Positions 9,886-52,277 of a DNA stretch of 64,000 nt are shown here, piece after piece. The notes under the pieces are model-generated. The model was given only the letters and a program-made list of their open reading frames with translations, was not told the DNA's origin and did not search any database. A program made the translations under genes and the position numbers. Origin of the DNA: an uncultured Enterobacteriaceae bacterium (GTDB lineage Bacteria > Myxococcota_A > UBA9042); the NCBI GenBank assembly GCA_964447285.1, contig CAYURO010000018.1, positions 20,522 through 84,521 on the forward strand, read 5' to 3'. Position 1 is the stretch's first letter, and every line of letters starts with the position of its first letter.

Positions 9886-10710
9886 TCAGTCGTTCAGCCC
9901 GTCGCCGAACACCCGGCAGGGGATCCCCAGCTCGCTGCGGACCCTGTGCGCAATCGCCTCAGCCACGATGCCCGGCACCTTGTGCAGCTTCTTCTCGATC
10001 GGCGGGCGGTCCAGGGCGTAGAGGTCGACCCGGCGTGGGTGGGCCAGACGCACCAGCTCGAGCCACGCATCTACCTCTGCCGCAACGGTATTGTCGACGC
10101 TGCCTTGGACCAGCAGGGTCTGGACAATCGCGTTGGGCAGCTCACCCGCCGCTACGGCAATGTCGCGAAGCAAGATCGGCTGGAACGGCATGTTCAGGCG
10201 CTCGAACAGCTGCTGACTGCCGCCATCGATCTTGACCGCCACCTCGTCCAACCTTGCGACTGCTCTGCGGATACGCGGATGGACCAGCTCGGTGCCGGCC
10301 GTCAGCAGGATCGTGGGAACGTGGGGGGCCAGCTCGTCGCGCAGGCGCAGTAGCACCTCGATCGCTTCCGCCACCTGCGGGTGCAGCGTAGCGTCGCCGT
10401 TGCCGCTCAGGACCAGGCCGTGCAGGGGGTATCCGCGGAAGTCGCCGTGATCACGAAGGAGTTCCAGTGCGCCGCGCAGCTCGCTGGCGAACCGCTCGAC
10501 ACTCGGGAACGGCACGGTGTCCCTGCCCTCGGGCCCCAGCTGGCAGTAGGTGCACCGCAGGCTGCAGCGCTTGTGGTCAAGCGGCAACAGGTTGATCCCC
10601 AAGGTGTTTCCATAGCGTCGGGATGGCACCGGGCCGTAGATCGTGTCCACCGCCAGTGCCGCGTGCACGCTGGGGTCGGGGCCTGCCGTCTGGGCTGTTT
10701 CGCTGACCAT
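9886..10710 (-). CDS. Radical SAM protein, COG0731-type
   Basis: N-terminal YGPVPSRRYGNTLGINLLP followed by the CxxxCxxC cluster CSLRCTYCQ. 274 aa. Confidence 0.75.
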   Translation of the reverse strand: MVSETAQTAGPDPSVHAALAVDTIYGPVPSRRYGNTLGINLLPLDHKRCSLRCTYCQLGPEGRDTVPFPSVERFASELRGALELLRDHGDFRGYPLHGLVLSGNGDATLHPQVAEAIEVLLRLRDELAPHVPTILLTAGTELVHPRIRRAVARLDEVAVKIDGGSQQLFERLNMPFQPILLRDIAVAAGELPNAIVQTLLVQGSVDNTVAAEVDAWLELVRLAHPRRVDLYALDRPPIEKKLHKVPGIVAEAIAHRVRSELGIPCRVFGDGLND

Positions 10711-10818
10711 GGTCGTCCTCGCAGTCCTGTTTCCGCTTCTCGTCGGGACCGACTAGCATACGCTCTGGTCGCCGCCTTGGCACGAGTGGTGCCTGACCGC
10801 GCGGAGCCCGGGAGTCTC

Positions 10819-12351
10819 ATGCTGCAAGTCTCGCTGCGTCGCCCTCTGCTGATCCTGGCCGGTTGCCTGCTGCCCATCCTGCTCACGGGCTGTCCAACGC
10901 CGTTTACGGCCACGGATCAGGCCGAGGACACCTTGGATGCCGCCACCGACCAGAGCGATACCGCCGCTGACCCGGACGACGGTCGCTCACGCCCGCTTCC
11001 CGACACCACCGCGGAGACCGTCATGCCCGCCGGCTGCGACCCCGCGTGCCCGATGTGGCAGGCGTGCGTGAATGAGTCGTGCGAATCCGCGACGTGCCAG
11101 ACCGACGCGCAGTGCAACCCCGTCCCCGCGGTCGACCCGCCGCACTACTGCTACCGCGGCCAGTGCCAGCTGTTTCAGTGCTCGGACAAGAGCGACTGCA
11201 AGGCCGGCGACGACTGCAACAAACTGACCTACTTGTGCTATTCCCCCGGAACCGGCTGCCAGACCAACCCCAAGGCGTGCGAGGACGGCGACCCCTGCAC
11301 CCTGAACACCTGCAACTACGCAAGCGGCGTGTGCGAGGTGACGAACGTCAGCAACTGCTGCGCCACCGTTGCCCAATGCGACGACAAGGTGGCGTGCACC
11401 GTCGACAGCTGCGTGGGCCAGAAGTGCGTGAACGAGCCGGTGGGCGACTGCTGCTCCAGCGACCTCGAGTGCGGCGACGGCAAGCCCTGCACCACTGACA
11501 AGTGCAGCAACGGCCAGTGCGTGTTCACTCCGGTGGCGAACTGCTGCTCCAACGACGGCAACTGCATGGACAGCCTCGACATCACCGTCGACACCTGCGT
11601 GGTGCAGAAGTGCGTGCACGCATGGCCAGGCATGACGACGACTTGCACGGGCGAGGGGCAGTGCCAGCAGACGGCGTGCGTCGCCAGTACCTGCGTCTCG
11701 GGCAAGTGCAGCTACAGCCCGATTCCGACGGCGACCGGGTGCTGCGAGGCCGACGACCAGTGCCTGACCGACGTCAAGTGCTTCGTTCCCGCCTGCCAGG
11801 GCGGCGTGTGCGGTCAGACGGCGGCGCAGGGCATCGGCGCCCACGTGCGGTATCGCTTCGACACGGCGGCGTTGAACGGCTGGACGGTCGAGAAGTCCAG
11901 TCAGAGCGTGTACTTCCACTTCAGCACGCTAGGGTCGGTCGCCGGCGCGGGCTCCCTGCGCTATGGCAAGCCGGGGGTGATGTCGTTCGAGGACTCGACG
12001 GCGAACAAAGGCTCGGCCACCAGCCCGGTGCTGACGGTGCCGACCAGCGCCCCCAGCATCGCGTTCTGGGTCGCGCTGGACGCGGAGCCGGGAACGGCCG
12101 TGCATCAGGTAGGCCTTGACGTGATCGACGTCGCCACGGGCGCGGTAAAGGTCGGTTTGTGGAACAAGAACGATAACTTGAAGGGAACCACCATGGGCGC
12201 ATGGAAGGACCAGTTGGTCTCGCTGTCGCCGTGGGCCGGCAAGCAGGTCAAGCTGCGTTTCTGGTTCGATCAGGTGAAGTACGACACGTCGAACAAAAGC
12301 AAGCTGGGCTTCGTGATCGACGAGATCGAGATACAGGGCTCTTGTCCGTAA
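10819..12351 (+). CDS. Secreted lipoprotein with myxobacterial-type cysteine-rich repeats and a C-terminal beta-rich domain
   Basis: Signal peptide and lipobox LLTGC. More than eight repeats of C-x(2,3)-D-x-x-C / CxDGxPCTxDxC. C-terminal segment GIGAHVRYRFDTAALNGWTVEK... has no Cys. Confidence 0.6.
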   Translation: MLQVSLRRPLLILAGCLLPILLTGCPTPFTATDQAEDTLDAATDQSDTAADPDDGRSRPLPDTTAETVMPAGCDPACPMWQACVNESCESATCQTDAQCNPVPAVDPPHYCYRGQCQLFQCSDKSDCKAGDDCNKLTYLCYSPGTGCQTNPKACEDGDPCTLNTCNYASGVCEVTNVSNCCATVAQCDDKVACTVDSCVGQKCVNEPVGDCCSSDLECGDGKPCTTDKCSNGQCVFTPVANCCSNDGNCMDSLDITVDTCVVQKCVHAWPGMTTTCTGEGQCQQTACVASTCVSGKCSYSPIPTATGCCEADDQCLTDVKCFVPACQGGVCGQTAAQGIGAHVRYRFDTAALNGWTVEKSSQSVYFHFSTLGSVAGAGSLRYGKPGVMSFEDSTANKGSATSPVLTVPTSAPSIAFWVALDAEPGTAVHQVGLDVIDVATGAVKVGLWNKNDNLKGTTMGAWKDQLVSLSPWAGKQVKLRFWFDQVKYDTSNKSKLGFVIDEIEIQGSCP

Positions 12352-12394
12352 CGAGTGGTCTGCACGACCTGCCGTGGATCGCCGACGGCCGCCG

Positions 12395-12904
12395 TCAATC
12401 CAGCGAGAGTGCGTTCTGATCCTGATCCGCTGCGTCGTCCAGAGCGGCCGTGACGACCAAGTCGTGCTGTATCGGGAAGTTCACGGAGCGGCCGATGAAC
12501 GAGATCTGCCGCGACCGCTCGTGCAGCGCGTGGGCCAGGGCGATGTGGGTGGGATCATCCACAACGACGCGAGGTTGCAGCCGAATCTCGGTGAACTGCA
12601 GCACGCCGTTGACGGGCTCCAGCCGTCCCACCGGGTGGTCTTCGTAGGCGATAACAGTCACCCGTTCCCGCGCACACAGCGCCAGAAAGCTGAGCAGGCG
12701 GCAGCTGGCCACGGCCACGAGCAGCAGCTCCTCAGGGTTGTGCAGCGCCGGGTCACCGCGGAAGTGCGGGTCGGCGGACCCGACGATGGCGGGCTTTCCA
12801 TCGAATGTGCAAGTGAATTCGCGGGAGTAGCCGGGGGCGTTGGTCGGGCCGGTCGCGCTTCCGGTCCACGTGACCTGAGCCTGACAGTGCAGTTCGGCGG
12901 TCAT
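12395..12904 (-). CDS. OsmC/Ohr family peroxiredoxin-like protein
   Basis: 169 aa. Conserved EELLLVAVASCRLLSFLALC region and second Cys context typical of the OsmC family. Confidence 0.75.
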   Translation of the reverse strand: MTAELHCQAQVTWTGSATGPTNAPGYSREFTCTFDGKPAIVGSADPHFRGDPALHNPEELLLVAVASCRLLSFLALCARERVTVIAYEDHPVGRLEPVNGVLQFTEIRLQPRVVVDDPTHIALAHALHERSRQISFIGRSVNFPIQHDLVVTAALDDAADQDQNALSLD

Positions 12905-13139
12905 GCGACACCTCCAAGGTCAATGGAGGATGGTCGACCGCGGCGGACGGCGCAACTGATGAAACACGCTACATGTGGAAAATGTCTACATACACCCGCG
13001 GTTGCGTCAACGTGCAAGTGCGCCGTTCTCTCTGTAGTCCCATGGTGTTGTGTAGCAAGAGCGCAGGTGGCACAGACGCTGCAACTGGTTGGGCCGGCAG
13101 CCACGCGCTCGCACTCTTCCCACCCTCCGGAGGTCCCCC

Positions 13140-14912
13140 ATGTCACCCACCCGCCGCCGCATCCGCGCCTTGACCCTGGCCGTTTGCGTGCTGTTCCTGC
13201 CCGCCGCCTTTGCGGGGTGCGGCAGCGACGCCTCGATGACCGGTGCCGACGAGAGCCTGGAGACGCCCAATCAGATGGGCGACGTCAAGTCCGACACCAG
13301 TACCAGCTACCACAGCGACGTCGTGGCAAGCGACAGCTCTGGCTGGACGCCGATGGACGGGACCAGCTCAGACGCCACCGGTGGAACCCCGTACCCGGGC
13401 ACCGACGGCGACATGGGCATCGGCTTGAAGCCGGGCGGCGCGCAAGACATCAACTACTTCAGGATGTTGCTGGGGCAGGGCAAGCTCCCCAAGGCAGCGG
13501 ACATGACGATGGAAGGCTGGCTGAACGAGCACGACACGCTGCTGCCCAAGGCCAACCCGGAGCGCTCGATCGACCTGCACGCGATGGCGGCGATTCTTCA
13601 GGGCACGGCCAACATCGCGCCCGAAGTCGTGCTGCAGCTGGGCTTCAACAGCGGCATGTCGTTGGAGCAGGTCAAGGCCAAGGTCGCGCTGACGCTGGTG
13701 ATCGACCGTTCGGGGTCGATGTGGGGTGACAAGCTGGAGTACGTCAAGGCGGGGATGCGGGCGCTGATCGAGGTGCTGCCGGTGGGAACGCGGCTGGCGA
13801 TCGTGTCGTTCTCCAGTGACGTGAAGACCGATTGGCCAGCCAAGGACTTCACGGTTGGTGACAAGCCCGCGCTGCTGAACGTGATCGATCAGCTGACCTC
13901 AGACGGCGGCACCAACATCCACGGCGCGCTGCAGGCAGGCATCTTCGTCTGCAAGTCCGCAGGCCCTGAGTACACCTTTCGCCGCGTCCTGCTGCTGAGC
14001 GATGGCCAGGCCACCGAGGGCAACACCGATCCCAGCGCAATCCTGGCGGTGGCCAAGGGCGGCAAGCAGAGCGGCTGCAGCATCTCGACCGCGGGCGTGG
14101 GCTACGACTTCGACCTGCCGCTGATGACGCAGATTGCCCAGCAGGCTGACGGGACCGCCTGGTTCCTGCCGAATGCGGAGAAGGCCAAGGAGGTCTTCAT
14201 CGAGGATCTCGAGACGATGCTGCTGCCGGTCGGCCAGAACCTGTGGGTGCAGTTCAAGCTGGCGGAGGGCTGGCACGTCGACCAGATCTACGGCTTTGAG
14301 TGGGTGGAAAAGGACGGCGTCGTCAAGCTGTTGGGACCCAAGAAGGACGAGCCCAGCGACCCCGAGCAGGGCACGGATCAGGCCGACACGGTCGATACGC
14401 CCGACACCACGGACGAGTCGCCGCCCGTCGCGCTGCCGACCCTGTTCGCCTCAAAGAAGAACGGTCTGGTCATGGCGCGGCTGGTTCCCCCGGAGGGGTC
14501 GGATCTGTCCAAGATTCAAGACCTTCTGCTGGCAGACATCACCTACGGCTACACGTTGTCCAAGACCAACGAGACGCAGCAGTTCACGGTGCCCGTCACC
14601 GTTCCCGGCGTGGTGCAGATCCCCGATGGCGGCATCGGCTATTTCGCCAGCCCCATCGTGCGCCGCGCATTTACGCTGCTGCAGGTTGGTCGGGCGCTGA
14701 TGCGGTCATGCACGCGGTTTGAAGCCGGGCAGGTCGTGGAAGCCCTGGCGGTGCTGGACGAGGCCAAGACGCTGGTCGCGCAGCAGAAGGCTGAGTTCTC
14801 CGCCGAAGAGCTGGCGAAGGTCGACATGGCGCCAGGTCTGGACGACGCGGCGGAGCTTGCGGCTTTGTTGAAGACGGTGATGGCGCAGGGTCAGGCGCAG
14901 CAAACGCCCTGA
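13140..14912 (+). CDS. von Willebrand factor type A (vWA) domain lipoprotein
   Basis: GGAGG Shine-Dalgarno. Lipobox FAGC. vWA MIDAS motif DRSGSMWGDK with downstream threonine (LTSDGGTNI). Acidic/Thr-rich linker. Confidence 0.75.
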   Translation: MSPTRRRIRALTLAVCVLFLPAAFAGCGSDASMTGADESLETPNQMGDVKSDTSTSYHSDVVASDSSGWTPMDGTSSDATGGTPYPGTDGDMGIGLKPGGAQDINYFRMLLGQGKLPKAADMTMEGWLNEHDTLLPKANPERSIDLHAMAAILQGTANIAPEVVLQLGFNSGMSLEQVKAKVALTLVIDRSGSMWGDKLEYVKAGMRALIEVLPVGTRLAIVSFSSDVKTDWPAKDFTVGDKPALLNVIDQLTSDGGTNIHGALQAGIFVCKSAGPEYTFRRVLLLSDGQATEGNTDPSAILAVAKGGKQSGCSISTAGVGYDFDLPLMTQIAQQADGTAWFLPNAEKAKEVFIEDLETMLLPVGQNLWVQFKLAEGWHVDQIYGFEWVEKDGVVKLLGPKKDEPSDPEQGTDQADTVDTPDTTDESPPVALPTLFASKKNGLVMARLVPPEGSDLSKIQDLLLADITYGYTLSKTNETQQFTVPVTVPGVVQIPDGGIGYFASPIVRRAFTLLQVGRALMRSCTRFEAGQVVEALAVLDEAKTLVAQQKAEFSAEELAKVDMAPGLDDAAELAALLKTVMAQGQAQQTP

Positions 14913-14922
14913 CCCAAGGGCG

Positions 14923-16197
14923 CTACTTCGCGGCAGGGGGCGGAACCGGTGCGGCGGCAGGCGTCGGGACCGCGGCGGCCTTCGGAGCCGGAATGGCAGC
15001 GGGAGCGACACCGGGAGCCGGAGCTACGCCGGGAGCGGCACCCTGCGGCATCCCCTGCGGCATCCCCTGCGGCATTCCACCCTGCGGCATCCCCTGCGGC
15101 ATTCCACCCTGCGGCATCCCCTGCGGCATCCCCTGCGGCATTCCACCCTGCGGCATACCCTGCGGCATACCCTGCGGCATACCCTGCGGCATACCCTGCG
15201 GCATACCCTGCGGCATCCCCTGCGGCATCCCCTGAGGCATCCCACCCTGCGGCATCCCCTGAGGCATCCCACCCTGCGGCATCCCCTGAGGCATTCCACC
15301 CCGTGGCATCATTCCGGGAGGCATCATGCCGGCGGGCATGTCGGTGCCGGTCGGACGGCCGGGCAGGCCGCGGGGCATCATGCCGGGAGGCATGTCACCG
15401 GGGGGCATCATGCCGGGAGGCATCCCGTTGCCACCCTGGGGACCGAAGCGCTGGATGCGGCGGAAAATGGGGGTGAGCTCAGGTGCGGAGAAGTCGGTGA
15501 CCTCGTCGGGGCTGAACGACATGGGCACGCGCGCGGCACCGTCGAGCAGGAAGACCTCGACTGTGCAGGTCGGCGCCCCGGCGGCGAGAGCGAACAACAG
15601 GCCCTGCGGCCCTTGGTCGGCCCCGCGGCGCGGTGCAGGGGCGAACTTCAAGCCGGCCCCCTCAGCCGCGGCCACCAGACGGGACTTGCCCACGGCGCCC
15701 GAGACGTTGGGTCCGGCGACGAACGGCTGGCCGCCGAAGAGTTTGTTGGCCGCTTGCACACACTGGTCGGCGCGAGCACCGGCACCTTGGCGGAAGTGCA
15801 AGGTCGCCGTGACGCGGCCGTCCATCTCGAACAGGATCTGGACGCCCTGATCGTGCTCGAGGCGCACTTCCGAGTCGCCGTCGGGCGCCGGAATCACGAG
15901 ACGAACCGACCAGTCGCGCTCGCTGACGAACGGCACGCCGAACTTGCGGTCGCGCAGAATCTCGGCGCGGCCCTTGGGGTCGCTGCGGATCTTGGCCACC
16001 ACTTCCCATGCATCCGCGTAGCTGGCGGACTGCGTGGGGGCGACCTCAACGCGAACTTCCCTGCCGCCAAGCGGAGTTCCGTCGCGCTGGTACAACCACA
16101 GGTGAGTGGGGGCGACCCGCTCGACCATGCCGGCGATGACGAGAACGACCAAGACGGCGATGGCGCCGATTCCGATCCACAATCCCTTGCCTTGCAT
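14923..16197 (-). CDS. Membrane-anchored protein with a globular domain and a C-terminal Met/Pro/Gln/Gly tandem-repeat tail
   Basis: N-terminal transmembrane segment [20 protein letters not shown]. About 25 copies of GMPQG/MPQG. An Ala/Pro tail follows. Confidence 0.65.
15000..15330. repeat. Tandem 12/15-nt DNA repeat (ccctgcggcat / ccaccctgcggcat) encoding (G)MPQG units
   Basis: Directly visible as ggcatcccctgcggcattccaccctgcggcat iterations. The repeat also creates spurious ORFs in several frames on both strands (14949..15476, 14993..15235, 15024..15299). Confidence 0.9.
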
Positions 16198-16302
16198 GAA
16201 TTCCTCCAGTTTGGACCCTCGTGAGGCGGGCGCATGGTAGGAGCGTGCAAGTCAAAGGGCAAGCCGCGCATTCCCGCAAGCTGTGGGACCTTGAAAGCCC
16301 CG

Positions 16303-25461: not shown

Positions 25462-25566
25462 CCTGCATCCGACGGTGCCCAATCGTACTCCTACCCCCCC
25501 ATGCCGTTTGGGTCTAAGCTTCGGCATTCCACTGCGACCGTTGGGCCGCCCACCTTGGGGGACGTC

Positions 25567-27726
25567 ATGACGCCTGCTTGCACGACCATGTTCCGCACAC
25601 TTCGACGGGTTGCGTTGGGCGTTCTTGCGCCGCTGCTGCTGCCGACACTTGCGTCTGCCGCAGTGCCGACCACCGTGCTGCTCGAGGGGACGCTGCAGGC
25701 GACGGGCGGCGGTCCGGCGGCGGACGGCAAGTATCTGCTGAATCTGGCGATCTATCCCGATGCGCTGGGTGGTCAGGCGGCGTGGAGCGAGCAGGGCGCT
25801 GAAGCGTCGGTTCAGGGCGGCTTGTTCAGTCTCGCCATGGGCGCAAAGGTCCCGCTGAAGCCCGAGCTGCTGGCGGCGCTGTCCAAAGCCTATCTGGGCG
25901 TGACCGTGCAGCCGGACCCCGAGCTACCGCGGGTGCCGGTACACGCCGTTCTGTACGCGTTGCGCGCTGGCGTGGCGACGGGGATCGACTGTTCCGGCTG
26001 CATCCAGACCGCGCATCTGGATCCGCAGGTGTTGGCCCCTTATGCCAAGTCGGCCGATCTGGCGGCCTATGCCAAGACCGCGTCGTTGGCCACGGTCGCG
26101 ACCTCGGGGGCCTTCGCTGACCTGTCGGGCGGCCCGGACCTGAGTGCCTATGCGAAGACGGCCTCGCTGGCGACGGTTGCGACATCCGGCACATACGCAG
26201 ACTTGGAGGGATTGCCGACCCTTGCCAAGCTGGGCATCGCCTGCGGGACCGGCTTGGTGGTGCGCGGACTGAAGGCAGACGGCAGCTACGACTGCGTGCA
26301 GGCGATGGACCCCTTGGCGCTGCCCAAGGATGCGCTCGACGAGGTCTCGAACGGCCTGTTGACCAACCAGTTCAACGAGGTCGCCGCCAGCACGAAACTC
26401 GTCCCCATCCCCGACAACAGCCCCGTCGGCATCAGTGACGTGATCGACGTGCCGGACTTCGGCACTGCCCAGACGTTCAGCGTAGCCGCCGAGATCGCCA
26501 ACAGCGACACCGGAAATCTGCGGATCACGCTCATCGACCCCACCGGCACCAAGTTCGTCCTGTGGGACAAGACGGCCAAGGGCACCATCGTCAAGACGAC
26601 GTGGCCCACCCCGACCAAGACGGTGTCCGGCGACTTGAGTACATGGATCGGCAAGAACCCTAAGGGAAAGTGGTACTTAGAGGTAATTGACGTCGCCTTC
26701 TTGAACAACGGCTTCGACGGTGCCCTGAAGGGGTGGAGCCTGAACATCGGCGTCATGTCGTCTGCCAAGGTCGGGTTGGCTGGTCTGCTGAAGCTGCAGA
26801 ACGCCGCCGAGGCCCCGCTTCCGTGCGGTCCGACACTGGCCGGTTCGCTGTACTTCGACACAGTGGCCAAGGCCGTGCGCTATTGCGACGGGGCGGCTTG
26901 GCGCAACTTGGCCGACACGTGCGGCAACGGCATTCTCGACGCCACCGAGCAGTGTGACGACGGCAACAACACCGATGGCGACGGCTGCTCGGCCACCTGC
27001 CAGACCGTGTGCGGCGACGGCAAGTTGCTGGGCAAGGAAGAGTGCGACGACGGCAACACCAAGGATGGCGACGGCTGCAGCGCGGCGTGCATCGCGTCGG
27101 TCGGTTTCTCGAAGGTGCGACCGGGCGCCTCGTGCGCTGCCATCCTCGCTGCGTGGACCAGTGCGGGCTGGACGGCCAAGGACGGCAAGTACTGGCTCGA
27201 CCCGAATCTGGGCGACCCAGCCGACGCGTTCCTGGCGACCTGCGACATGACGCAGAAGGGCGGTGGCTGGACCAAGGTCAGCGAGTTCGCCGAGACGTAC
27301 TACGACAACCTCAGCGACCGCAGCAAGATCCCGTACAAGGAAGTGCTGGTCCTCGAGTGGGACCACACCACCGCGACCCCCGTCTACTCGAACTTTGTGG
27401 TCCAGCACGCCTGCTACAACTCGGCCAAGACCGGCTTCCAGGTTGCCAACACATCGGCGAACTGCGACTCGGGCTATCAGGTCCGGGTCGGTGGCACGGG
27501 CGGTTCGTGCGGCGACGCCGAGGACGGCTGCTTTGGCTTGTACTACGGCGACTTGGCCGTTGGCGGCGGGTGCAACTGGAACTGCGGCGCGGGTGCCGTG
27601 AAGATCTGGGGCAAGGGCTACGCCTGCAATTCGTGCCGCTGCCGCAACGCGCCATACACGACAATCGAAGGCTGCGGCAACGGCGGTGCGTGGGGCAACA
27701 AGCGCTTCTGGATCTACGTGCGCTAA
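25567..27726 (+). CDS. Secreted multidomain protein: signal peptide - conserved N-terminal domain - ~24-aa tandem repeats - P-like (proprotein convertase P) domain - two Myxococcus Cys-rich repeats - fibrinogen-related domain
   Basis: Signal peptide LLLPTLASAA. Repeats DLAAYAKTASLATVATSGAFADLSGGPDLSAY. P-domain-like GKNPKGKWYLEVIDVAFLNNGFDGALKGWSLNI. CGNGILDATEQCDDGNNTDGDGCSATC occurs twice. CDMTQKGGGWT is a fibrinogen C-terminal-domain hallmark. Confidence 0.7.
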   Translation: MTPACTTMFRTLRRVALGVLAPLLLPTLASAAVPTTVLLEGTLQATGGGPAADGKYLLNLAIYPDALGGQAAWSEQGAEASVQGGLFSLAMGAKVPLKPELLAALSKAYLGVTVQPDPELPRVPVHAVLYALRAGVATGIDCSGCIQTAHLDPQVLAPYAKSADLAAYAKTASLATVATSGAFADLSGGPDLSAYAKTASLATVATSGTYADLEGLPTLAKLGIACGTGLVVRGLKADGSYDCVQAMDPLALPKDALDEVSNGLLTNQFNEVAASTKLVPIPDNSPVGISDVIDVPDFGTAQTFSVAAEIANSDTGNLRITLIDPTGTKFVLWDKTAKGTIVKTTWPTPTKTVSGDLSTWIGKNPKGKWYLEVIDVAFLNNGFDGALKGWSLNIGVMSSAKVGLAGLLKLQNAAEAPLPCGPTLAGSLYFDTVAKAVRYCDGAAWRNLADTCGNGILDATEQCDDGNNTDGDGCSATCQTVCGDGKLLGKEECDDGNTKDGDGCSAACIASVGFSKVRPGASCAAILAAWTSAGWTAKDGKYWLDPNLGDPADAFLATCDMTQKGGGWTKVSEFAETYYDNLSDRSKIPYKEVLVLEWDHTTATPVYSNFVVQHACYNSAKTGFQVANTSANCDSGYQVRVGGTGGSCGDAEDGCFGLYYGDLAVGGGCNWNCGAGAVKIWGKGYACNSCRCRNAPYTTIEGCGNGGAWGNKRFWIYVR

Positions 27727-28783: not shown

Positions 28784-30379
28784 GTGTCGACCTTCCTTTC
28801 GACCCGCCGCTGTTCGTTCATCGTCTTCCTTTCGCTACTTGCAGTGTCGGCCGGCTGCGGCTCGAGCTCGGGCGCAGGGGGCTACTACTACATTCCCGTG
28901 GATGCGGCGGACGGCACCGGATCCGACGGCAGCGACGCCGCCAATCCCGACGCCAACCCGGCCGATGCGAAGACCGACACGGTGGCCGACGTCACCGCCG
29001 ACGCGACCGACCTGGACGCCACCGAGACCCTCGACACGGTCGACGCCACCGACGTCCCGGACGGCACCGACACGACCGATGTCCCCGACACGACAGACGT
29101 CTTCGACACCACGGACACCACCGAGGTGCAAGACACGACCGATGCCGTCGACACCACCGACGTCGTGGACACCACCGACACGACCGACACGATGGACGTC
29201 CCCGACACGACCGACACGATGGACGTCCCCGACACCACCGACACGTCCGACACGACCGACGCCGCGGACACGACCGACACGACCGACGGCGTCGTGGGAC
29301 CTGCCTGCGCCCCCACGCCGAATATCGCCGGTCTGCTGCAGTGCCCCGAGGGCAAGGTCGACGTGACGCTGAAGGCCGCGACCGTCACCTACGTGTTCAA
29401 TGCCGGCTACTTCCTGGCCGACGAGAGCACCACCCACGGCATCGAGGTCTACGTCGGCACCACCTGGACGTACCCCAAGCCGGTCGTGGGCGACCGCGTC
29501 GACTTGCACCTGACCGAGTGGGGCAACTGGAAGAACCAGCAGGAGATCACGGCGGCCGACGCGCCCGTGGCCTTGGGCGTGGGCAACCCGGCCGTGTTCA
29601 AGCTGGACCTGCAGTCGCCCGGATCCGCCGGCGTGCTGGCCGAGACCCACGAGAGCCGCGAGGTGGGGGGCACGGGCCTGAAGGTGCTGACGGTGGCCGG
29701 CGCGGACCTGACCGTTGCGTCCAACGTGCTGCCCAACATGGTGTTTCGCGTCGACGGCACCAGCACTTTGTGCAAGGGAGCGGTCTTCGAGCTGAAGTCG
29801 GCCGTCATCACCCAATTCGGCGAGATCTATCGTGTGCAATTGATGAACGGTGCAGCAGACTTGGGCACCATCGATATCTCGGGCTGCACGCCTGACCCGA
29901 TCGACGAGACGCAGAACTGGGGCTTCGAAGACCTGGCCGCCACCGACCCGCCGGCGGGTTTCGTCAAGCTGACCGGTCTGTTCTCGGCCCTGCGCACCAC
30001 GACCGTCGCCCACGCCGGCGCGGCGTCTTGCGAACTGATCTGGACCTCGGACGCCAACCAGGACTTTACCACCGGCGCCTATGCCGAGATCCTGCCCGGC
30101 GACACGGTCAAATTCAGCTTCTGGGTGCTGGACGAGGATGTGGCGGGCCGTGTGCGGCCGGGGCTGCTGTTCTACAAGGCCGACAAGACGTTCTTGAAGT
30201 CAGAGTATGCCACGGGGTACTCGGTCGACGCGGCGGGGGTGTGGAACCAGCTCGCGCATACCTTCGTCGCTCCGGCCGACGCCGCGTTCGTGCGCGGGCA
30301 GGTGCGGATGTACGACGTGGCGCCCTTCCCGGGGTCGGCCAAGGTGCGCATCGACGACTGGAGCATCGGCAAGCAGTAG
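28784..30379 (+). CDS. Secreted lipoprotein with a long acidic Thr/Asp-rich linker and a C-terminal globular domain
   Basis: GGAGG Shine-Dalgarno then a GTG start. Lipobox AVSAGC. About 120 aa of TDTTDV-type low complexity. No family motif recognised in the C-terminal domain. Confidence 0.55.
   Translation: MSTFLSTRRCSFIVFLSLLAVSAGCGSSSGAGGYYYIPVDAADGTGSDGSDAANPDANPADAKTDTVADVTADATDLDATETLDTVDATDVPDGTDTTDVPDTTDVFDTTDTTEVQDTTDAVDTTDVVDTTDTTDTMDVPDTTDTMDVPDTTDTSDTTDAADTTDTTDGVVGPACAPTPNIAGLLQCPEGKVDVTLKAATVTYVFNAGYFLADESTTHGIEVYVGTTWTYPKPVVGDRVDLHLTEWGNWKNQQEITAADAPVALGVGNPAVFKLDLQSPGSAGVLAETHESREVGGTGLKVLTVAGADLTVASNVLPNMVFRVDGTSTLCKGAVFELKSAVITQFGEIYRVQLMNGAADLGTIDISGCTPDPIDETQNWGFEDLAATDPPAGFVKLTGLFSALRTTTVAHAGAASCELIWTSDANQDFTTGAYAEILPGDTVKFSFWVLDEDVAGRVRPGLLFYKADKTFLKSEYATGYSVDAAGVWNQLAHTFVAPADAAFVRGQVRMYDVAPFPGSAKVRIDDWSIGKQ
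28900..29300. repeat. Degenerate DNA repeats (gacaccaccgac / gacacgaccgat) encoding the D/T-rich linker
   Basis: Visible iterations of gacacgaccgacacgatggacgtccccgacac and similar units. They generate antisense ORFs rich in Ser/Val. Confidence 0.8.
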
Positions 30380-31663: not shown

Positions 31664-34600
31664 TCAGTAGATGCCCTTGGCGTTCGCACCGCCGAAGCCG
31701 TATGCGTCTACGGCCTCGCGCAGGTAGAACGGCACTTCGGTATACTGTCCCAGCTTCATGCACGCCTTGTTGTGCACGCACTTGCACCCGCTGTTGTCCG
31801 TGGCAGAGCAGCCCGCGATGGGGCCACCGTTCACGTTCTCCATCGAGGGGTCGTACTTCACCAGGGCCTCGCCGGTCTTGTCGCTGTAGACGGGCTCGTA
31901 CCAGTCGGGAATGCCGTCACCGTCCTGGTCGGGGCCGGGCGTCGTCTGGTAAGCGTCTTTCAGCAGCGAGTTGGCGTATTCGAGCACGCGCGCGGCGATG
32001 CCCTTCTCGACCGTGCGGCCGAAGATGGTCTCGCGGCCGATGCGCCGGGCGACGTAGATCTTGCCGATCGGGTTATGGAACTCGATGCGCGCCTTGATGC
32101 CCGGGTCGGAGTCCTTGCCGAGCTCCCAGATGCGCATCATGTCCATCCAGCCCTGCTGCGCGTTCTCTGGCAGGTACAGCATCGTCCAGGCGATCAGGAA
32201 CTTCTGCTGCTCCCAGCCCACCTGCGGGTCGACCACGGCCGTCTTGACGGGGGCCACGGCACCAAAGGGCTTGTCGTCGGTCGAGCCATAGGTCGTGCAG
32301 ACGGTGCTGTTCTGCGCCGGGAAGCAACTGGTGGGCTGCATGCCGAACCACGTCGTCCAGCCAAAGCCCATCGTCGGGAACTTCTGGGTGTCGATCAGCG
32401 GCTTGCCGTTGGCGCCGGCGGCAAGGCGCGGGCCCTTCAGGAAGTCGTCGCCGGTCAGTTGGTTGGCAAGCAGGCGGCGGAAGCCGTCCGGGAAGAGGTC
32501 TGCCAGCGAGGCTGAGCGGTAGCGAGCGTCGACGAAGTCGCCGAGGGACGAGCTGATGAAGTTGTCGACCGATTCGGTCATCAGCATCGAGATGTACATC
32601 TTGTCGTAGTACGAACCCGCATTCAGCGTGTACTGCGAGTCGTACTCGCCCTTGTCGCTGGCCAGTTGGTTCTCGACCGGGCGACCGCCGTAGGTGACCT
32701 GACCGAAGTAGCCCGTTGCGCCATTCGGAACGACTACCGTGACGGTCGCCGGCGAGCTGCTCATCTTCGATTCCATCGACCTCAGCACGCCATTCGCGGC
32801 GTCGGCGAAGTGCTCGCCTGCCTCTGGACGCGCCAACTGCTTGGCGAAGTGGTCAAACACGATACCCGAGGCCAGCACGTTGTCGGGGAAGAACGACTTG
32901 GCGGCATAGGCCCACAGCTCGTCCGGATCCGCGCCCACTTCAAGCGCGACGTCCCGGTAGATATTGCGGTACAGGGCCAAGCCCTTGGCGCCGTCGCGCA
33001 GCTTCTCGTTGAAGCGGGTCAGCGCGCGGTTCGCGGCGCCGCGGACCGAGAAGCTCTTTCGGCCGCGACGGTAGTTGTCGAAGATGTGGCCTACTTCCTG
33101 CTGGGTGATCATGAACCCGAAGATCTCGTAGGGATCCGCACCGTTATCGTGGCGGTACACGCTCAGGTTGCCCAGGTCGGCCCAGTTGTCGGTCGCGAAG
33201 CCATAGGGCACACGCTGGCGCTTCTGGGGGTCCACAGCAACGCCACCGCGGTAACCGCCCGTCGGCAGTTCGTTCGTCGCCGGCGCGCGCAGGCTGGTCC
33301 AGGGCACGTAATCGACCTTCTGCTGGCGGCAGCGGGTGTATCTCTCGTCAATCTTGACGATCAGGCCGTCGAGCAGGGGCGAGAAGGAACCGTCGGTCGC
33401 CTCGTTCCAGCGCGCCGGCTTGAACTTCAGGGGGTCGACCTCTTGGCAGTCCTTGATCAACTCGAAGCCCGTGTTCAGCGCCGAGTAATGGATGTCTTTG
33501 GACCCAAGGCTGAAAGTCAGGCCGAGGATGCCACCGAAGTTGTCGGTCTTGCCCAGCATGGCCTTGCCGCGTGGTGTGCCGGCCTTGTAGGTGTCGTCGG
33601 CGTACACGGCCACCGAGTCGCCGTACAGCATGCGCGTCGCGGCAAAGTCGTACACGCCAAGACCCAGGAAGTCCTGAGTGGTCTCGCCGGCATAGTCCAT
33701 GATCGACGACTGCTGCCACATCCAGATCAGGTTGTCGCGCTCCTCCTTGGTCACCGGGTCGAAGTAGCGCGGGCCGACGCACGTCGAGCCGTCGGGAGCC
33801 AGCGCCTTGCAGTCGGTCTTGACCTTGCCGTTCTTGGTGCGGAGCTGCCAGTACTGCGGGCGGAAGCCGGTCGCGTCGGAGGAGCTGATGAAGTTGTGGC
33901 GCAGACCGATGCTGTGTCCCATTTCGTGCGCGATGACCGCGTAGTGGGCGCGGCGAGCGACGTAGTCGCGCATCTTCTCTGCGCGCGCCTGCTGAACTTC
34001 CGGCGGCTGGGTCGGGTCGAACTGGCCAAACTTCTCCTGCAGCACGTCTGCAAGGCCGGCGATGCTCAGCGGTGCCTCAGCCATCTGCATGATGCACATG
34101 CCCCGCTCGGCCAGGGCGGTCTCCTTCATGCGGCGCAACTCGCGCTGAACCGCCGGGTTGCCGCCACGCAGCGGCGAGGCGATGTCCAACACGGCCTGGC
34201 CCAGCGGCATCCCCACCATGCCGGCAAGCACCTGGACGGCGGGCGTGATCAGCGAGGCCTCGAACAGCGTTCCCATCGCCATCTGGCGGCGGGCGGCGTA
34301 GGTGGGCGCCATGGCCGAAGCGACCTTTGCGGAGGCGGTCACTTCCTTCAACTGATGCTTCAGGTCCACGGCGGCCTGAACCGCTTCGGGGTGCTGCTGC
34401 TCGAAGGCGGCGGCACGCTCGGCGTTCATGTCGATGCCTTCAGACTGGGCGGTGCGCGCGTTGAATTCTTCAGCCGTCAGGCGGGGAAGCAGGCCGTTGG
34501 CAGAGGCGGCACGGGCGGCCTCGGACCAGTCTTTGATGTACTTGCCCTCGGTGATGCTCTCGGCCTTCAGCTCGCCAGCGATATAGCGAGCCTGGTCGAC

Positions 34601-36559
34601 GACGCCCTGACTCCAGAGGTCGTTGACGTACGTCCACGCGTTGATGCTGGCGGCGATGGTCTCGCCAGTCAGCGGGTCGTTCGAGTCGACCATGATGCCC
34701 CAGGGCGACGGCGTCTGCGGTTCGGGAAGGCCATTGACCTGGTGGTAGCGCAGGTCGCCGCGGCGGACGTTCAGGGCCTTGGCGCACACCGCCAGCGTCT
34801 CGGTGTCGCCGTCGACGCGGGCCGTCTCGCACTTGTCCGCGGTCCAGCCGATCGGCAGGCGCTCGGCCGTCTTGGCGCACCCGATGGGGTCGCCCAGCTC
34901 GACGGGGCTGTGGCACAGGACGATCATCTCGGGCATCTTCGCGATCGCCTTGACGCCGTCGGTATAGCCGCGCTCTGTCCCCACCGTGTCGGCCAGGTTC
35001 TGGCACAGCAGCTCGTTGCGACCCAACTGCGCGTAAGCACGGCTGTTGCGGCAGTCGTCGACTTCCATCGCCAGCGCGACGGCATCACCGTTGTCGTCCT
35101 GCTGGCCGTCGTACACAGGGAACTGCGTATCGCACTTGGCGTACTCGGCAACCAGGTCCACCGCGGCCCCGCCGTCGGGAACAGTGGCGCTCGCTCTGGC
35201 TTGGGCAACGCGCTTGCACTCACCGAGCTGCGACGACCGGATGGCGACGCGCAGGGCGATGTCCCATTCGTGGGTGGCCTGCTCCGTGGCCTCGAAGTAC
35301 TTCAGGTTGCTGCCACCGGTGTAGTACCACGCGACCGGCTTGGCCAGGCGCTGGGTCAAGGGCAGGGTGCAGCGCTGCTTGAACGTGTCGCAACGAGATC
35401 CGTTGCCAACGGAAGCGCACTCGTCTTCGGTGCCGTCCTGGTTCAGGTCGCGGTGCGGGTCCTGGCCATACTTGGTGGTCTCGGGGGTATAGCAGGCGAC
35501 CGGACCGCCCTTGGGGTCCTGGAACGTCGTGGGCGTCGAGGTCGGCTTGCCGCTGGCGTCCAGCTTGTAGTACGCGTGGCTCTGCTCCCAGATGTTGTAA
35601 TAGTTCAAGAAGCGGTACCACTTGGCGTCGGTCATGCCGTAGTTGCGCGTGTATCCCGACCGCTCGGTGGTGAAGCCGCCAAACGCCTGAAAGCGAAAGC
35701 CGTCCCAGTCGCGGGGTTCGAAGTCGGTGACCACGACGCGGCGGAAGGCATGGCGGACGGTGAGCTCGATGGGGTTGCACGAGCCCGCGGGCGCGGTGCC
35801 GCCGGCAAAGTCGGCCTCGAGGAAGCAGGCAGGGAACGTGTCGATGCCCCAGCCCAGGTGGCTGAGATCGACGACGCCCGGCTTGGCGAACGCCTTGCTG
35901 GTGATGTCGAAGTAGCTGTTGTCTTTGGCGAAGTACGGGGCATTCGGGTCGTTCGGGTCCTGGACGTTGTACGCCATGGGCTCGTACTGCACGCCGCCGT
36001 AGATGCCGACCATCGACAGGGTGTCGAAGTCGTAGCTATCCACGTTCTGGTTCTTCGACCAGTCGATCCGCATGTGGGTGCGCTGGTACCAAGGGCGGTC
36101 GTAGTTGTTCTCCTCGAGGATGTTCATCTCCTCGCCCGTGGTGGAGTTGTACGACCGCTTGATGTCGAAGTGCGACTCGATGCGGAACGCGCAGACGATC
36201 ACGCCGTCCTGCGTCGCCTTGCCCAGGCCCTTGCCGTCCGAGCCCTCGATGCGCTCGTAGGCGAGGCGGCCGATCAGCAGCCCTTCGGTGATCTGCCACT
36301 TGATACGCGACACCGGCTGCGCATAGGTCGACGTGAACAGGCCGTCCTGCGACGCGCCGTAGCCGACGTCGATCAGGGTGGCCTGCGCCCAGAATTCCGG
36401 GTCGTCAGCGGTGCTGACCAGGTCCTTGCCGACGAACAGGGTCTTGTCGAGCGCCCAGGGCTGGACGCGGTCGATCGGGGCACGCTCCTCGGCACAACTG
36501 GCGGAAAAGGCCGAAAGGGCGAGCAGCAGGAACAGGGGGGCGCGAAGGGCGCGGAACAT
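31664..36559 (-). CDS. Giant secreted or lipo-anchored zinc metalloprotease-like protein (HEXXH zincin), about 1632 aa
   Basis: Signal peptide with lipobox FSASC. Zincin motif VIAHEMGHSIGLRHNF near residue 1000. The rest resembles no family I can name. Confidence 0.7.
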   Translation of the reverse strand: MFRALRAPLFLLLALSAFSASCAEERAPIDRVQPWALDKTLFVGKDLVSTADDPEFWAQATLIDVGYGASQDGLFTSTYAQPVSRIKWQITEGLLIGRLAYERIEGSDGKGLGKATQDGVIVCAFRIESHFDIKRSYNSTTGEEMNILEENNYDRPWYQRTHMRIDWSKNQNVDSYDFDTLSMVGIYGGVQYEPMAYNVQDPNDPNAPYFAKDNSYFDITSKAFAKPGVVDLSHLGWGIDTFPACFLEADFAGGTAPAGSCNPIELTVRHAFRRVVVTDFEPRDWDGFRFQAFGGFTTERSGYTRNYGMTDAKWYRFLNYYNIWEQSHAYYKLDASGKPTSTPTTFQDPKGGPVACYTPETTKYGQDPHRDLNQDGTEDECASVGNGSRCDTFKQRCTLPLTQRLAKPVAWYYTGGSNLKYFEATEQATHEWDIALRVAIRSSQLGECKRVAQARASATVPDGGAAVDLVAEYAKCDTQFPVYDGQQDDNGDAVALAMEVDDCRNSRAYAQLGRNELLCQNLADTVGTERGYTDGVKAIAKMPEMIVLCHSPVELGDPIGCAKTAERLPIGWTADKCETARVDGDTETLAVCAKALNVRRGDLRYHQVNGLPEPQTPSPWGIMVDSNDPLTGETIAASINAWTYVNDLWSQGVVDQARYIAGELKAESITEGKYIKDWSEAARAASANGLLPRLTAEEFNARTAQSEGIDMNAERAAAFEQQHPEAVQAAVDLKHQLKEVTASAKVASAMAPTYAARRQMAMGTLFEASLITPAVQVLAGMVGMPLGQAVLDIASPLRGGNPAVQRELRRMKETALAERGMCIMQMAEAPLSIAGLADVLQEKFGQFDPTQPPEVQQARAEKMRDYVARRAHYAVIAHEMGHSIGLRHNFISSSDATGFRPQYWQLRTKNGKVKTDCKALAPDGSTCVGPRYFDPVTKEERDNLIWMWQQSSIMDYAGETTQDFLGLGVYDFAATRMLYGDSVAVYADDTYKAGTPRGKAMLGKTDNFGGILGLTFSLGSKDIHYSALNTGFELIKDCQEVDPLKFKPARWNEATDGSFSPLLDGLIVKIDERYTRCRQQKVDYVPWTSLRAPATNELPTGGYRGGVAVDPQKRQRVPYGFATDNWADLGNLSVYRHDNGADPYEIFGFMITQQEVGHIFDNYRRGRKSFSVRGAANRALTRFNEKLRDGAKGLALYRNIYRDVALEVGADPDELWAYAAKSFFPDNVLASGIVFDHFAKQLARPEAGEHFADAANGVLRSMESKMSSSPATVTVVVPNGATGYFGQVTYGGRPVENQLASDKGEYDSQYTLNAGSYYDKMYISMLMTESVDNFISSSLGDFVDARYRSASLADLFPDGFRRLLANQLTGDDFLKGPRLAAGANGKPLIDTQKFPTMGFGWTTWFGMQPTSCFPAQNSTVCTTYGSTDDKPFGAVAPVKTAVVDPQVGWEQQKFLIAWTMLYLPENAQQGWMDMMRIWELGKDSDPGIKARIEFHNPIGKIYVARRIGRETIFGRTVEKGIAARVLEYANSLLKDAYQTTPGPDQDGDGIPDWYEPVYSDKTGEALVKYDPSMENVNGGPIAGCSATDNSGCKCVHNKACMKLGQYTEVPFYLREAVDAYGFGGANAKGIY

Positions 36560-36596
36560 CGAGGACCTCCCGGACGGGCGAGACGAAATGGCGGGG

Positions 36597-52101: not shown

Positions 52102-52277
52102 CTGCTTCATCGACCCGGCGCACGCTGTTCTCCAGCGATGGCGACAGGTTGGGCGTCGAGTTGTTGCAGGCCGACTGCTCAGGACTCAGGCGCGCTGGTT
52201 GCGATGCGCAGGCATCTCCGATACCTTCATATTCACTATTCAGGCGTTTCGAAGGCGGGTCGTGCGCCGTGGAGCGG

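Follow-up and report, generated by a model that had tools for sequence, protein, structure and literature searches.

A methionine-rich MPQG repeat tail under purifying selection in a putative periplasmic protein of uncultured freshwater Myxococcota

In an uncultured lineage of freshwater Myxococcota, a genuine gene encodes a 424-aa protein that ends in a long array of MPQG tetrapeptides, and purifying selection on this gene is strong. The array gains and loses units of 12, 15, and 27 nt through slippage or unequal recombination, and selection keeps both the peptide M-P-Q-G and a nearly equal number of Met residues across lineages at a synonymous divergence (dS) of about 0.2. The Met-rich tail is a lineage-specific addition to a very rare protein family. 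As a tentative reading of its function, the tail may capture or buffer soft metal ions, most likely Cu(I) and possibly Ag(I).

The gene lies on the minus strand of the 64-kb stretch of DNA that was analysed, here called the window (Table 1). Its ATG start codon is preceded by GGAGG 5 nt upstream, and its coding status was supported by a fitting GC3 pattern and by the same gene call on public contigs. The encoded protein begins with a hydrophobic helix, continues into a folded domain of about 200 aa, and ends in a tail of 169 aa. Hydropathy (Kyte-Doolittle, 19-residue windows) peaked at 2.7 at residue 7. AlphaFold2 predicted residues 30-220 to be folded, with pLDDT mostly 70-90; for residues 231-424 it predicted no secondary structure, with pLDDT of 30-53 over most of the segment and block means rising to about 60 in the last 24 residues. 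Pfam and NCBIfam scans of the 424-aa protein found no domain, and NCBIfam FliH matches on the repeat (E 5e-4; 19 bits against a cut-off of 293 bits) were set aside as low-complexity noise. A C-terminal sorting signal of the MYXO-CTERM or PEP-CTERM type was rejected, the protein having no terminal hydrophobic helix or Cys.

Table 1. Features of the repeat gene and its leader, in window coordinates
Feature	Coordinates	Strand	Basis and remarks
Complete gene	14923..16197	-	424 codons plus stop; ORF listing and sequence
Hydrophobic signal-anchor or transmembrane helix, residues 5-24	16126..16185	-	Hydropathy maximum 2.7; AlphaFold2 helix 4/5-24; aligns with the lipoprotein signal peptide of P0001
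Beta-sandwich, transthyretin-like fold, residues 31-137	15787..16107	-	
Small alpha/beta subdomain, residues 144-219, with Cys146 (15760-15762) and Cys211 (15565-15567)	15541..15768	-	AlphaFold2 model; both Cys invariant in the three-member alignment
Older degenerate Met-rich units and one LPGR/RPTG stretch, residues 256-301	15295..15432	-	Translation and motif positions; Tandem Repeats Finder period-15 array 15374-15424; R299Q is the sole ortholog difference
Core array, 20 exact MPQG units (5 followed by an extra Gly), residues 302-386	15040..15294	-	Tandem Repeats Finder 15039-15310; unit-by-unit codons; 12- and 15-nt units, ancestral 27-nt period
Ala/Pro-rich C-terminal end (...PPPAAK), residues 387-424	14926..15039	-	Translation; Tandem Repeats Finder periods 18 and 24; one ortholog substitution (T412A); no predicted secondary structure (AlphaFold2)
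Upstream leader of 81 nt, invariant in three lineages	16198..16278	-	Alignment of the window, L004, and L005

Tandem Repeats Finder placed the repeat at 15039-15310 (periods 12, 27, and 39; matches 85-90%; scores 317-325) far above every other tandem repeat of the window. N-terminal of the exact units lie seven degenerate ones of the MPPG, MPRG, or MPAG kind (residues 259-300), in which M, P, and G are constant, the third position is P, R, A, or Q, and Met is doubled in four. Three versions of the 12-mer make up the core array, ATGCCGCAGGGT (11 copies), ATGCCGCAGGGG (6 copies), and ATGCCTCAGGGG (3 copies), and the additional Gly is encoded by GGA or GGG; every difference between units falls at a third codon position. 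The original prediction, made from the window sequence before this analysis, had described a transmembrane segment, a globular domain, and a disordered Met-rich tail, an architecture that translation, hydropathy, and AlphaFold2 all bore out. Its estimate of about 25 repeats was a fair one for what are 27 MPxG units in total, but the DNA repeat that it called perfect is only nearly so.

Met accounts for 31 of the 169 tail residues (18%) and for 24% of the core array, as compared to 1.9% in 22 other open reading frames of the window (binomial P ~1e-21). There are no His or Cys residues in the tail, two Asp, and seven charged residues altogether (4%). Neighbouring Met residues are spaced as MxxxM or MxxxxM (i/i+4 or i/i+5), with MM pairs in the older units, and the literal string GGMP occurs six times. 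Met is specifically retained in the repeat units against GC pressure: Leu was found at just one of about 30 hydrophobic repeat positions despite a GC content of 67%. Opposite-strand and alternative-frame readings across the repeat (PCGIPCGI..., AASPAAS...) were rejected, since the variation, both between lineages and between units, falls at third positions when read in the minus-strand frame, which GC3 also supports. By eye, a collagen-like or elastin-like reading was also rejected; the period is 4-5 residues rather than G-X-Y, and the unit is not VPGXG.

Orthologs were found in two metagenome-assembled genomes (MAGs) whose locus DNA is about 90% identical to the window; together the window, L004, and L005 form the three-lineage comparison used here. 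Going by MAG names, the source lineages come from stratified lakes. The two orthologs are 427 and 419 aa long, with 21 and 19 MPQG units in rearranged order. Over codons 1-297, 39-45 synonymous and 5 nonsynonymous differences separated the window gene from them, a dN/dS of 0.03-0.04 that was the lowest among six local genes; the protein was 98.3% identical, as against 89-96% for its neighbours. Within the repeats, differences between units were synonymous in all cases across the three lineages. At least six kinds of such variation were distinguished, all at four-fold degenerate sites (CCG/CCT/CCC; GGT/GGG/GGA/GGC), a pattern with a neutral probability of about 1e-4. Synonymous-only differences together with the low dN/dS argue that the tail turns over by slippage with its peptide under purifying selection.

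Lengths of 424, 427, and 419 aa, with 20, 21, and 19 MPQG units, confirm the change in length by slippage that had been expected among relatives, and the Met enrichment is likewise conserved in them, at 35, 35, and 33 residues (31, 31, and 29 within the tail). The expectation of recent expansion held in part. There has been local turnover: the window lineage carries six identical 12-nt units in a row at a place where its relatives retain the 27-nt period. The array itself, being of nearly the same size at a dS of about 0.2, is old and maintained. Absence of the repeat from an otherwise intact gene, which the original prediction had named as evidence against itself, was seen only in homologs of 25-30% identity and not in close relatives. 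An identical 424-aa protein is encoded on at least five contigs from more than one sample, and the population thus shows no hypervariability at this locus. The same observation, together with unit sizes that are all multiples of 3, led to the rejection of a phase-variable contingency locus. An exact-sequence cluster collection contained neither the window protein nor the two orthologs.

No invariant run in the 13.8-kb locus alignment is longer than the one that includes the 81-nt leader. It holds the Shine-Dalgarno GGAGG (16203-16207) and a weak promoter-like pair, TTGCCC-17-TACCAT, read by eye; a consensus scan of the leader returned no sigma-70 promoter. No Rfam family matched it, and its predicted fold was no better than those of shuffled sequences (z +1.2).

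When residues 1-230 were compared by phmmer with 1.84 billion representatives, two homologs were detected (E 9.5e-7 and 6.4e-5): P0001, which is hypothetical protein QM765_34630 of a Myxococcales MAG, and the metagenomic protein P0003. Both share 25-30% identity with the window protein, as well as the N-terminal hydrophobic segment, the beta-sandwich, and the Cys pair; unlike it, they are only 262 and 238 aa long, lack the Met-rich tail, and lie in other gene neighbourhoods. The alignment of all three has 33 invariant columns, among them the two Cys, and the window protein also carries the family's TxLWxY strand. The three constitute a tiny orphan family restricted to Myxococcota. A word-indexed homolog search found nothing with the N-terminal domain and, with a three-sequence profile, only P0001. 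A further candidate, P0002 (1749 aa), matched query residues 33-69 in 10 stretches of repeated units that look Ig-like by eye, and was taken as chance or fold-level similarity rather than homology. The likeness of the folded domain to transthyretin and 5-hydroxyisourate hydrolase, including periplasmic YedX/HiuH of E. coli, is at the level of fold only, with 10-17% identity; the window protein lacks the C-terminal YRGS motif of that family and has an extra alpha/beta subdomain. It had no Pfam match at E <= 5, and one family member reached Pfam Transthyretin (PF00576) at E 0.24.

The relatives also bear on topology. P0001 is a lipoprotein whose lipobox (LAGC) falls exactly where the window helix ends (VLAG-CTSK in P0001 against VIAG-MVERV). 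The window protein has no L-[AS]-[GA]-C lipobox, the Cys being deleted, and would therefore be a signal anchor or a substrate of SPase I rather than a lipoprotein. Because of the relative's lipobox and the conserved Cys pair, we infer that the N-terminus lies inside the cell and that the folded domain and tail are on the periplasmic side. Counted in favour of an extracytoplasmic location were the P0001 lipobox, the invariance of Cys146 and Cys211 in all three members, and the presence of just four residues, Lys4 among them, before the helix.

The surroundings of the gene gave no indication of a metal-related role. No cop, cus, pco, cue, or msr genes and no silver or other metal-resistance genes were found among the scanned open reading frames of the 64 kb (those supported by GC3, with Pfam and NCBIfam), and the same scans found no multicopper oxidase, CusCFBA, P1B-ATPase, or CopRS/CueR beside the gene. 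The neighbourhoods of the distant homologs contained no metal genes, and that of P0001 no copper homeostasis genes. Two genes away lies an OsmC-type peroxiredoxin gene (12395-12919), beyond a convergent gene for a VWA lipoprotein and thus in a separate operon from the tail gene. The VWA lipoprotein gene is not conserved beside the distant homolog.

Elsewhere, MPQG-type repeats occur mostly in unrelated proteins that, going by their other domains, are often cytoplasmic, viral, or eukaryotic; the carriers include SSB-like linkers, thioredoxin fusions, a spore coat protein, and an insect proteoglycan. On this evidence, most members of the motif class are generic low-complexity linkers. In one carrier, P0013, the repeats alternate F and M. 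Another, P0021, has a similar MPxG stretch on a protein with DUF305, the domain of the copper-binding protein CopM. Metagenome scans with peptide patterns and with a degenerate DNA pattern for the repeat had no matches, and a PDB sequence search with the tail gave low-complexity matches only. Among the papers searched, none contained MPQG-type repeat strings and none linked Met-rich proteins to such a tail in myxobacteria.

The original prediction had linked the tail to Cu(I) and Ag(I), a link that the gene content of the scanned 64 kb and the ligand composition of the tail, without His, Cys, MxM, or MxxM, left unsupported. It had proposed a search for homologs with MxxM-rich tails near cop or cus genes; the distant homologs have no tail and no metal genes in their neighbourhoods. 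Metal binding is the leading, though tentative, reading here. The functional element would be some 30 flexible thioether side chains, arranged as a multivalent brush of Met alone that is anchored at the outer face of the inner membrane. Met neighbours at i/i+4 or i/i+5 across Pro-x-Gly turns could supply two or three ligands per ion, and the brush would take up or buffer Cu(I), or possibly Ag(I), at high capacity but low affinity. Model-peptide work on the Ctr1 Mets motifs shows that copper transporter motifs with Met thioethers as the only ligands can bind both Cu(I) and Ag(I). In E. coli CueO, Cu6 and Cu7 are held by i/i+4 Met pairs (M358/M362 and M364/M368) within a partly disordered Met-rich domain (PMC11494321).

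Counted for such a brush were the lowest local dN/dS, peptide-level selection on the tail, retention of Met, the predicted periplasmic location, and predicted disorder, with the CueO Met pairs, the Ctr1 Mets motifs, and P0021 as precedents. At 18-24% Met, predicted to be disordered and probably exposed, the tail resembles the flexible Met-rich segments of periplasmic copper domains; the classical ligand motifs MxM, MxxM, and MxxMxHxxM with His or Asp co-ligands were not found in its 169 residues. Counted against it, besides the missing metal and msr genes (in the scanned open reading frames of the window and near the distant homolog) and the poverty in His, Cys, Asp, and short-spaced Met, were the mostly unrelated carriers of MPQG-type repeats, the lack of any conserved His or Met in the folded domain (three-member alignment) that might hint at a metal site, and a topology that is itself predicted. 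Between homologs, the Met-rich domains of copper proteins tend to vary. The rigid conservation of this tail is at odds with that habit, and a structural or recognition role fits it at least as well.

Such a role is possible, if rather doubtful: the Met residues would serve as malleable hydrophobic contacts for proteins, the envelope, or self-association, with the whole tetrapeptide constrained as a recognition or structural motif. The Hsp70 GGMP repeats, the (GGM)n tail of GroEL, and the Met bristles of SRP54 are comparable. The conservation of all four unit residues, not of Met alone, agrees with this, as do the six literal GGMP strings, the linker role of similar repeats in many unrelated proteins, and the missing metal context in the scanned 64 kb; at an assumed 0.3 nm or so per residue, an extended tail would measure an estimated 50 nm, enough to cross the periplasm. 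In Plasmodium Hsp70-1, both the chaperone function and the binding of Hop depend in part on GGMP repeats (PMC7926355). However, nothing follows the tail that it could space from the folded domain, and no candidate partner could be named; the VWA lipoprotein, encoded convergently, is not conserved beside the distant homolog. Hydrophobic contacts are also normally interchangeable, as in the F/M repeats of P0013, yet Met is almost never replaced here.

It is unlikely that the tail acts instead as a sacrificial oxidant sink or redox sensor, in which HOCl or peroxide-type oxidants would convert some 30 exposed periplasmic Met to the sulfoxide and a periplasmic MsrP-type reductase encoded elsewhere would restore them. 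The precedent is MrpX of Azospira suillum, a periplasmic hypochlorite sink of 20% Met recycled by YedY/MsrP (PMC4436054), to which the tail comes near in Met content and probable exposure; the nearby OsmC-type gene and the stratified-lake origin suggested by MAG names would also fit. MrpX, however, is small, soluble, and 44% charged, and its yedYZ-mrpX operon is under SigF/NrsF (PMC4436054). The tail has a tenth or so of that charge and is tethered to a folded domain; no msrP/msrQ (yedYZ), msrA/B, or SigF/NrsF-like pair was found within the window, and the OsmC gene belongs to a different operon. Met alone would suffice for a sink, and the strict conservation of P, Q, and G would go unexplained.

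That the tail is a neutral by-product, an irrelevant slippage expansion of a 12-nt unit that chanced to contain ATG and was tolerated at the C-terminus, is highly improbable: distant homologs do without it and the array has been rearranged between lineages as slippage would, but the variation among some 60 units in three lineages is synonymous only (P ~1e-4), array size has stayed nearly constant at dS ~0.2, Met is held against GC pressure, and no neighbouring gene is as well conserved.

More specific, and more doubtful than the Cu(I)/Ag(I) reading, is the proposal that freshwater Myxococcota have in the (MPQG)n tail a metal 'sponge' (or redox buffer) of a kind not described before: a His-free, thioether-only tandem repeat anchored on the periplasmic side of the inner membrane, encoded away from any cop/cus/msr cluster, and tuned in capacity by slippage steps of 12, 15, and 27 nt while selection acts on the number of Met. 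Should the tail indeed bind Cu(I)/Ag(I) or scavenge oxidants, it would offer a minimal natural model of Met-only chemistry, with one tetrapeptide used about 27 times, and such modules would exist outside recognised resistance operons, invisible to annotation pipelines. The array is also a clean example of a slippage-driven low-complexity repeat under strict peptide-level purifying selection, and thus speaks against writing off tails of this sort as junk. In practical terms the impact is modest, the protein being an orphan of uncultured bacteria with a putative function.

Among known systems, MrpX shares with the tail a Met content of about 20% and, by inference, periplasmic exposure, and differs in that the tail is essentially uncharged, repetitive, and membrane-tethered in a 424-aa protein, with no msr or sigF context in the window. 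The Hsp70 GGMP and GroEL GGM tails are likewise disordered C-terminal tails of Gly/Met/Pro tandem repeats. They belong, however, to cytosolic ATP-dependent chaperones, whereas Pfam and NCBIfam found no Hsp70 or Hsp60 domain in the window protein, whose fold is a transthyretin-like sandwich and whose location is probably periplasmic. Compared with the Met-rich copper segments, the tail is a Met-only, strict tetrapeptide tandem repeat where theirs are irregular Met/His/Asp motifs, and it is carried by an orphan domain rather than by a multicopper oxidase or chaperone, with no copper genes in the scanned 64 kb. Like the Met-rich segments of CueO, CopA/PcoA, PcoE/SilE, and CopM/DUF305, it is flexible, very rich in Met, and probably extracytoplasmic, and its Met residues pair at i/i+4 as they do at the Cu6 and Cu7 sites of CueO (PMC11494321).

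The gene that encodes the methionine-rich tail (Met-tail gene) had been placed correctly by the original prediction, and its coordinates were exactly borne out; it lies on the minus strand. It starts with ATG, with a GGAGG 5 nt 5' of the start codon. The C-terminal 169 residues of its product, the Met-tail protein, form a tail that on translation falls into three parts (see table). The underlying DNA array was the top-scoring tandem repeat of the whole window; the repeat, described at first as perfect, is near-perfect instead, consisting of three 12-mer variants (11, 6 and 3 copies in the core array) that differ at third codon positions only. Other frames across it were ruled out as coding, as GC3 and the substitution pattern favour the minus-strand frame. 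Met accounts for 18% of tail residues and 24% of those in the core array; across 22 other window ORFs the figure is 1.9% (P about 1e-21). Neither His nor Cys occurs in the tail. The degenerate (older) units differ in their third residue yet keep M, P and G, and Met is even doubled; Leu is found at only one hydrophobic position of the repeat tail; in a genome of 67% GC, this points to a specific requirement for Met itself. Elsewhere in the window, another tandem repeat within a coding region gives rise to an acidic stretch rich in Asp and Thr (…DTTDVPDTTDTMDVPDTTDTSDTTD…); the 580-aa protein that contains it has no Pfam domain.

Coordinates of the Met-tail gene, its protein, its orthologs and other features (window coordinates unless another locus is named)
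Feature	Position	Details	Source
Met-tail gene	14923-16197 (-)	424 aa	ORF listing
Tandem repeat	15039-15310	periods 12, 27, 39; scores 317-325	Tandem Repeats Finder
Beta-sandwich	residues 31-137		AlphaFold2 model
Alpha/beta subdomain	residues 144-219		AlphaFold2 model
Degenerate units	residues 259-300	7 units; minus-strand gene	translation
Exact MPQG units	residues 302-386	20 units, extra Gly after 5 of 20	translation
Ala/Pro-rich end	residues 387-424		translation
Ortholog, window		424 aa; 20 MPQG, 27 MPxG, 35 Met	
Ortholog, L004		427 aa; 21 MPQG, 27 MPxG, 35 Met	
Ortholog, L005		419 aa; 19 MPQG, 25 MPxG, 33 Met	
Invariant run	16124-16278 (-)	155 nt	three-lineage alignment
Low-dS region	13089-16197		
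Hairpin	14880-14925	CGCCCT…AGGGCG, then TTTG	by eye
Second coding repeat	29032-29287 (+)	periods 18, 27, 36, 63; in ORF 28637-30379	
Extra segment in L004	13819-14625 (-)	~845 bp, 268-aa ORF; absent from window at 12349-12390	
Large, probably secreted proteins	25462-27726 (+), 48753-50885 (+), 31664-36724 (-), 51786-55010 (+), 10354-12351 (+)		
P_proprotein protein directly 5' of P0001	L002 7133-9535		

The predicted architecture of membrane segment, globular domain and disordered tail agreed with the models: residues 5-24, with a Kyte-Doolittle maximum of 2.7, are markedly hydrophobic and modelled as helical, a fold is modelled for residues 31-219, and residues 231-424 are predicted to be unstructured. 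The AlphaFold2 model of residues 1-256, which rests on an alignment of three sequences, had a mean pLDDT of 72.6 and a pTM of 0.69. In the full-length model, residues 231-424 lacked secondary structure, with pLDDT of 30-53 across most of the segment, consistent with disorder.

No homologs of the folded part came up when 5.8 billion proteins were searched by word index, while exhaustive phmmer against 1.84 billion cluster representatives yielded two true relatives: P0001 (262 aa, E 9.5e-7), annotated as a hypothetical protein from a Myxococcales MAG, and P0003 (238 aa, E 6.4e-5). A third match, to an Ig-repeat protein, was treated as a chance similarity. On these searches the folded part appears to be almost an orphan. 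Both relatives stop soon after the folded domain and lack a Met-rich tail; the only home of the Met-tail protein is a three-member orphan Myxococcota family in which the tail is unique. In the three-way alignment Cys146 and Cys211 are invariant, and the lipobox of P0001 (VLAG-C) aligns exactly with the helix end of the Met-tail protein (VIAG-M). Only four residues, Lys4 among them, precede the helix. Taken together, these features make a periplasm-facing, N-in/C-out protein the most reasonable inference.

A genome scan located orthologs in the MAGs Myxococcota Deming_bin.407 (L004) and Myxococcales Loc090721-8m_bin-517 (L005). Gene order in both matches that of the window, and the DNA is about 90% identical across about 14 kb, a divergence at the species level. 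The original prediction had proposed a comparison of copy number among relatives, and the numbers do differ. Arrays in L004 and L005 alternate regularly between 12- and 15-nt units (a 27-nt period); the window array includes six identical 12-nt units in a row, which reads as a clear footprint of slippage. In all three arrays, nucleotide differences between units fall exclusively at four-fold degenerate sites (CCG/CCT/CCC; GGT/GGG/GGA/GGC). Given six or more variant kinds, and a synonymous share of only about 22% among possible changes, neutrality would produce such a pattern with a probability of ~1e-4. Across codons 1-297, dS was 0.20-0.23 and dN/dS 0.03-0.04, the lowest among six local genes (0.075-0.19 in the others). 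Between lineages the protein keeps 98.3% identity (89-96% for its neighbours), and an identical 424-aa version occurs on at least five public contigs from more than one sample, which rules out a hypervariable locus. Judged from these substitutions, purifying selection acts on the repeat peptide alongside slippage turnover. Since similar arrays occur in the relatives, vary only synonymously, show low dN/dS and recur in identical form, the array is old, maintained and constrained. Of the earlier proposal of recent expansion with length polymorphism, slippage therefore stands as modest turnover; recent neutral expansion is ruled out by constraint and upkeep across lineages.

The longest invariant run of the 13.8 kb three-lineage alignment takes in the 81 nt that precede the Met-tail gene and then its first 24 codons, even at their synonymous sites; elsewhere, intergenic DNA was only 65-74% invariant. 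The run had no Rfam match, folded no better than shuffles and yielded no consensus sigma-70 promoter; by eye, a weak TTGCCC-17-TACCAT pair can be made out in it, and CCCUUUGACUUGCA might pair with the AUG region. Such conservation suggests a promoter, operator or translation-initiation region. The dS of the Met-tail gene and of the adjacent VWA gene (0.16-0.18) is about half that of neighbours (0.27-0.47), reflecting either strong constraint on the codons of both genes, as high expression might impose, or later exchange of the segment between lineages.

The Met-tail gene comes last in its direction of transcription, preceded on its strand, 105 nt upstream, by a class-V PLP aminotransferase-like gene. 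A gene for a VWA-domain protein, with a lipobox-like FAGC motif at its N-terminus, converges on the 3' end across a 10-nt gap. A short GC-rich hairpin overlapping the VWA gene 3' end may be a bidirectional terminator shared by both genes. Nearby are genes for an OsmC-type peroxiredoxin, response regulators/histidine kinases and an OPT transporter; an extra segment between the OsmC and Cys-rich protein genes is common to both related MAG loci. DUF4215, Dicty_CTDC repeats, Ser/Thr kinases and a sigma-54 activator, all found in the window, are typical Myxococcota gene content, as are large, probably secreted proteins, here including two with P_proprotein (one also with DUF4215 and a collagen-C-like match), one of 1687 aa with a zincin motif, and two Cys-rich proteins with Dicty_CTDC repeats. 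Scanning the GC3-supported ORFs across the 64 kb with Pfam revealed no cop, cus, pco, cue, multicopper oxidase, P1B-ATPase or msrA/B/P/Q genes. The neighbourhood of P0001 differed from that of the Met-tail gene, and no metal genes were found there; the P0003 contig (1.8 kb) gave no usable context. The suggested link to a Cu(I)/Ag(I) system thus gained nothing from gene context.

A search that used only the tail as query retrieved 24 proteins carrying MPQG-like repeats, unrelated by other domains or features to the Met-tail protein and to one another: among them a zinc-ribbon membrane protein, a spore coat protein, thioredoxin fusions, an insect proteoglycan, SSB-like proteins with the repeat as linker, and probable viral or eukaryotic tail-anchored proteins. 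Because its carriers are mutually unrelated, the motif class is mostly a generic low-complexity linker of many independent origins. Three are exported proteins in which MPxG repeats are convergent: P0011 (TM segment, Cys-rich domain, C-terminal MPQG/MPPG tail), P0013 (secreted, alternating F and M) and P0021 (signal-peptide-like N-terminus, His-containing MPxG stretch, and DUF305). The last of these, DUF305, is also the domain of CopM, a protein that binds copper (PMC4335983). No mention of an MPQG-type repeat was found in the paper library searched.

Our guess is that function lies among Met-dependent mechanisms. We tentatively favour capture of Cu(I)/Ag(I), in which a thioether-only Met brush on the tail, probably exposed to the periplasm, would bind the metal. 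To our knowledge, the great majority of Met-rich segments characterised in periplasmic proteins relate to copper, and Met is specifically retained in this tail. Precedent exists in CueO, where copper is held by Met pairs at i/i+4 (PMC11494321). However, metal context is absent, the tail lacks His, Asp or Cys ligands, and Met-rich loops that bind copper are seldom so rigidly conserved. A non-metal interaction or structural tail, with Met as a malleable hydrophobic contact as in the Hsp70 GGMP and GroEL GGM tails (PMC7926355), would explain why the whole tetrapeptide is conserved; this is only slightly less probable, but leaves unaccounted the near-absence of Leu, Ile and Phe and the lack of any domain after the tail. 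An oxidant sink like MrpX (PMC4436054) matches Met content and location but is unlikely given the composition, the tethering and the lack of local msr genes. That the array is a neutral by-product is highly improbable, as the selection data speak against it.

The Met-tail protein fits no curated family. Copper Met-rich domains have ligand motifs and a gene context that are both missing here; the composition and operon of MrpX are not matched; chaperone tails are carried by a chaperone domain, which this protein lacks; and neither the family profile nor the catalytic motif of HIUase/transthyretin is found. A selection signal on a slippage-prone repeat is a neat feature of the gene, which comes from an uncultured organism. 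Met-rich, low-complexity, extracytoplasmic tails are a known kind to which this tail would belong; what is unusual is a strict tandem tetrapeptide, Met-only and under strong selection, outside any resistance operon.
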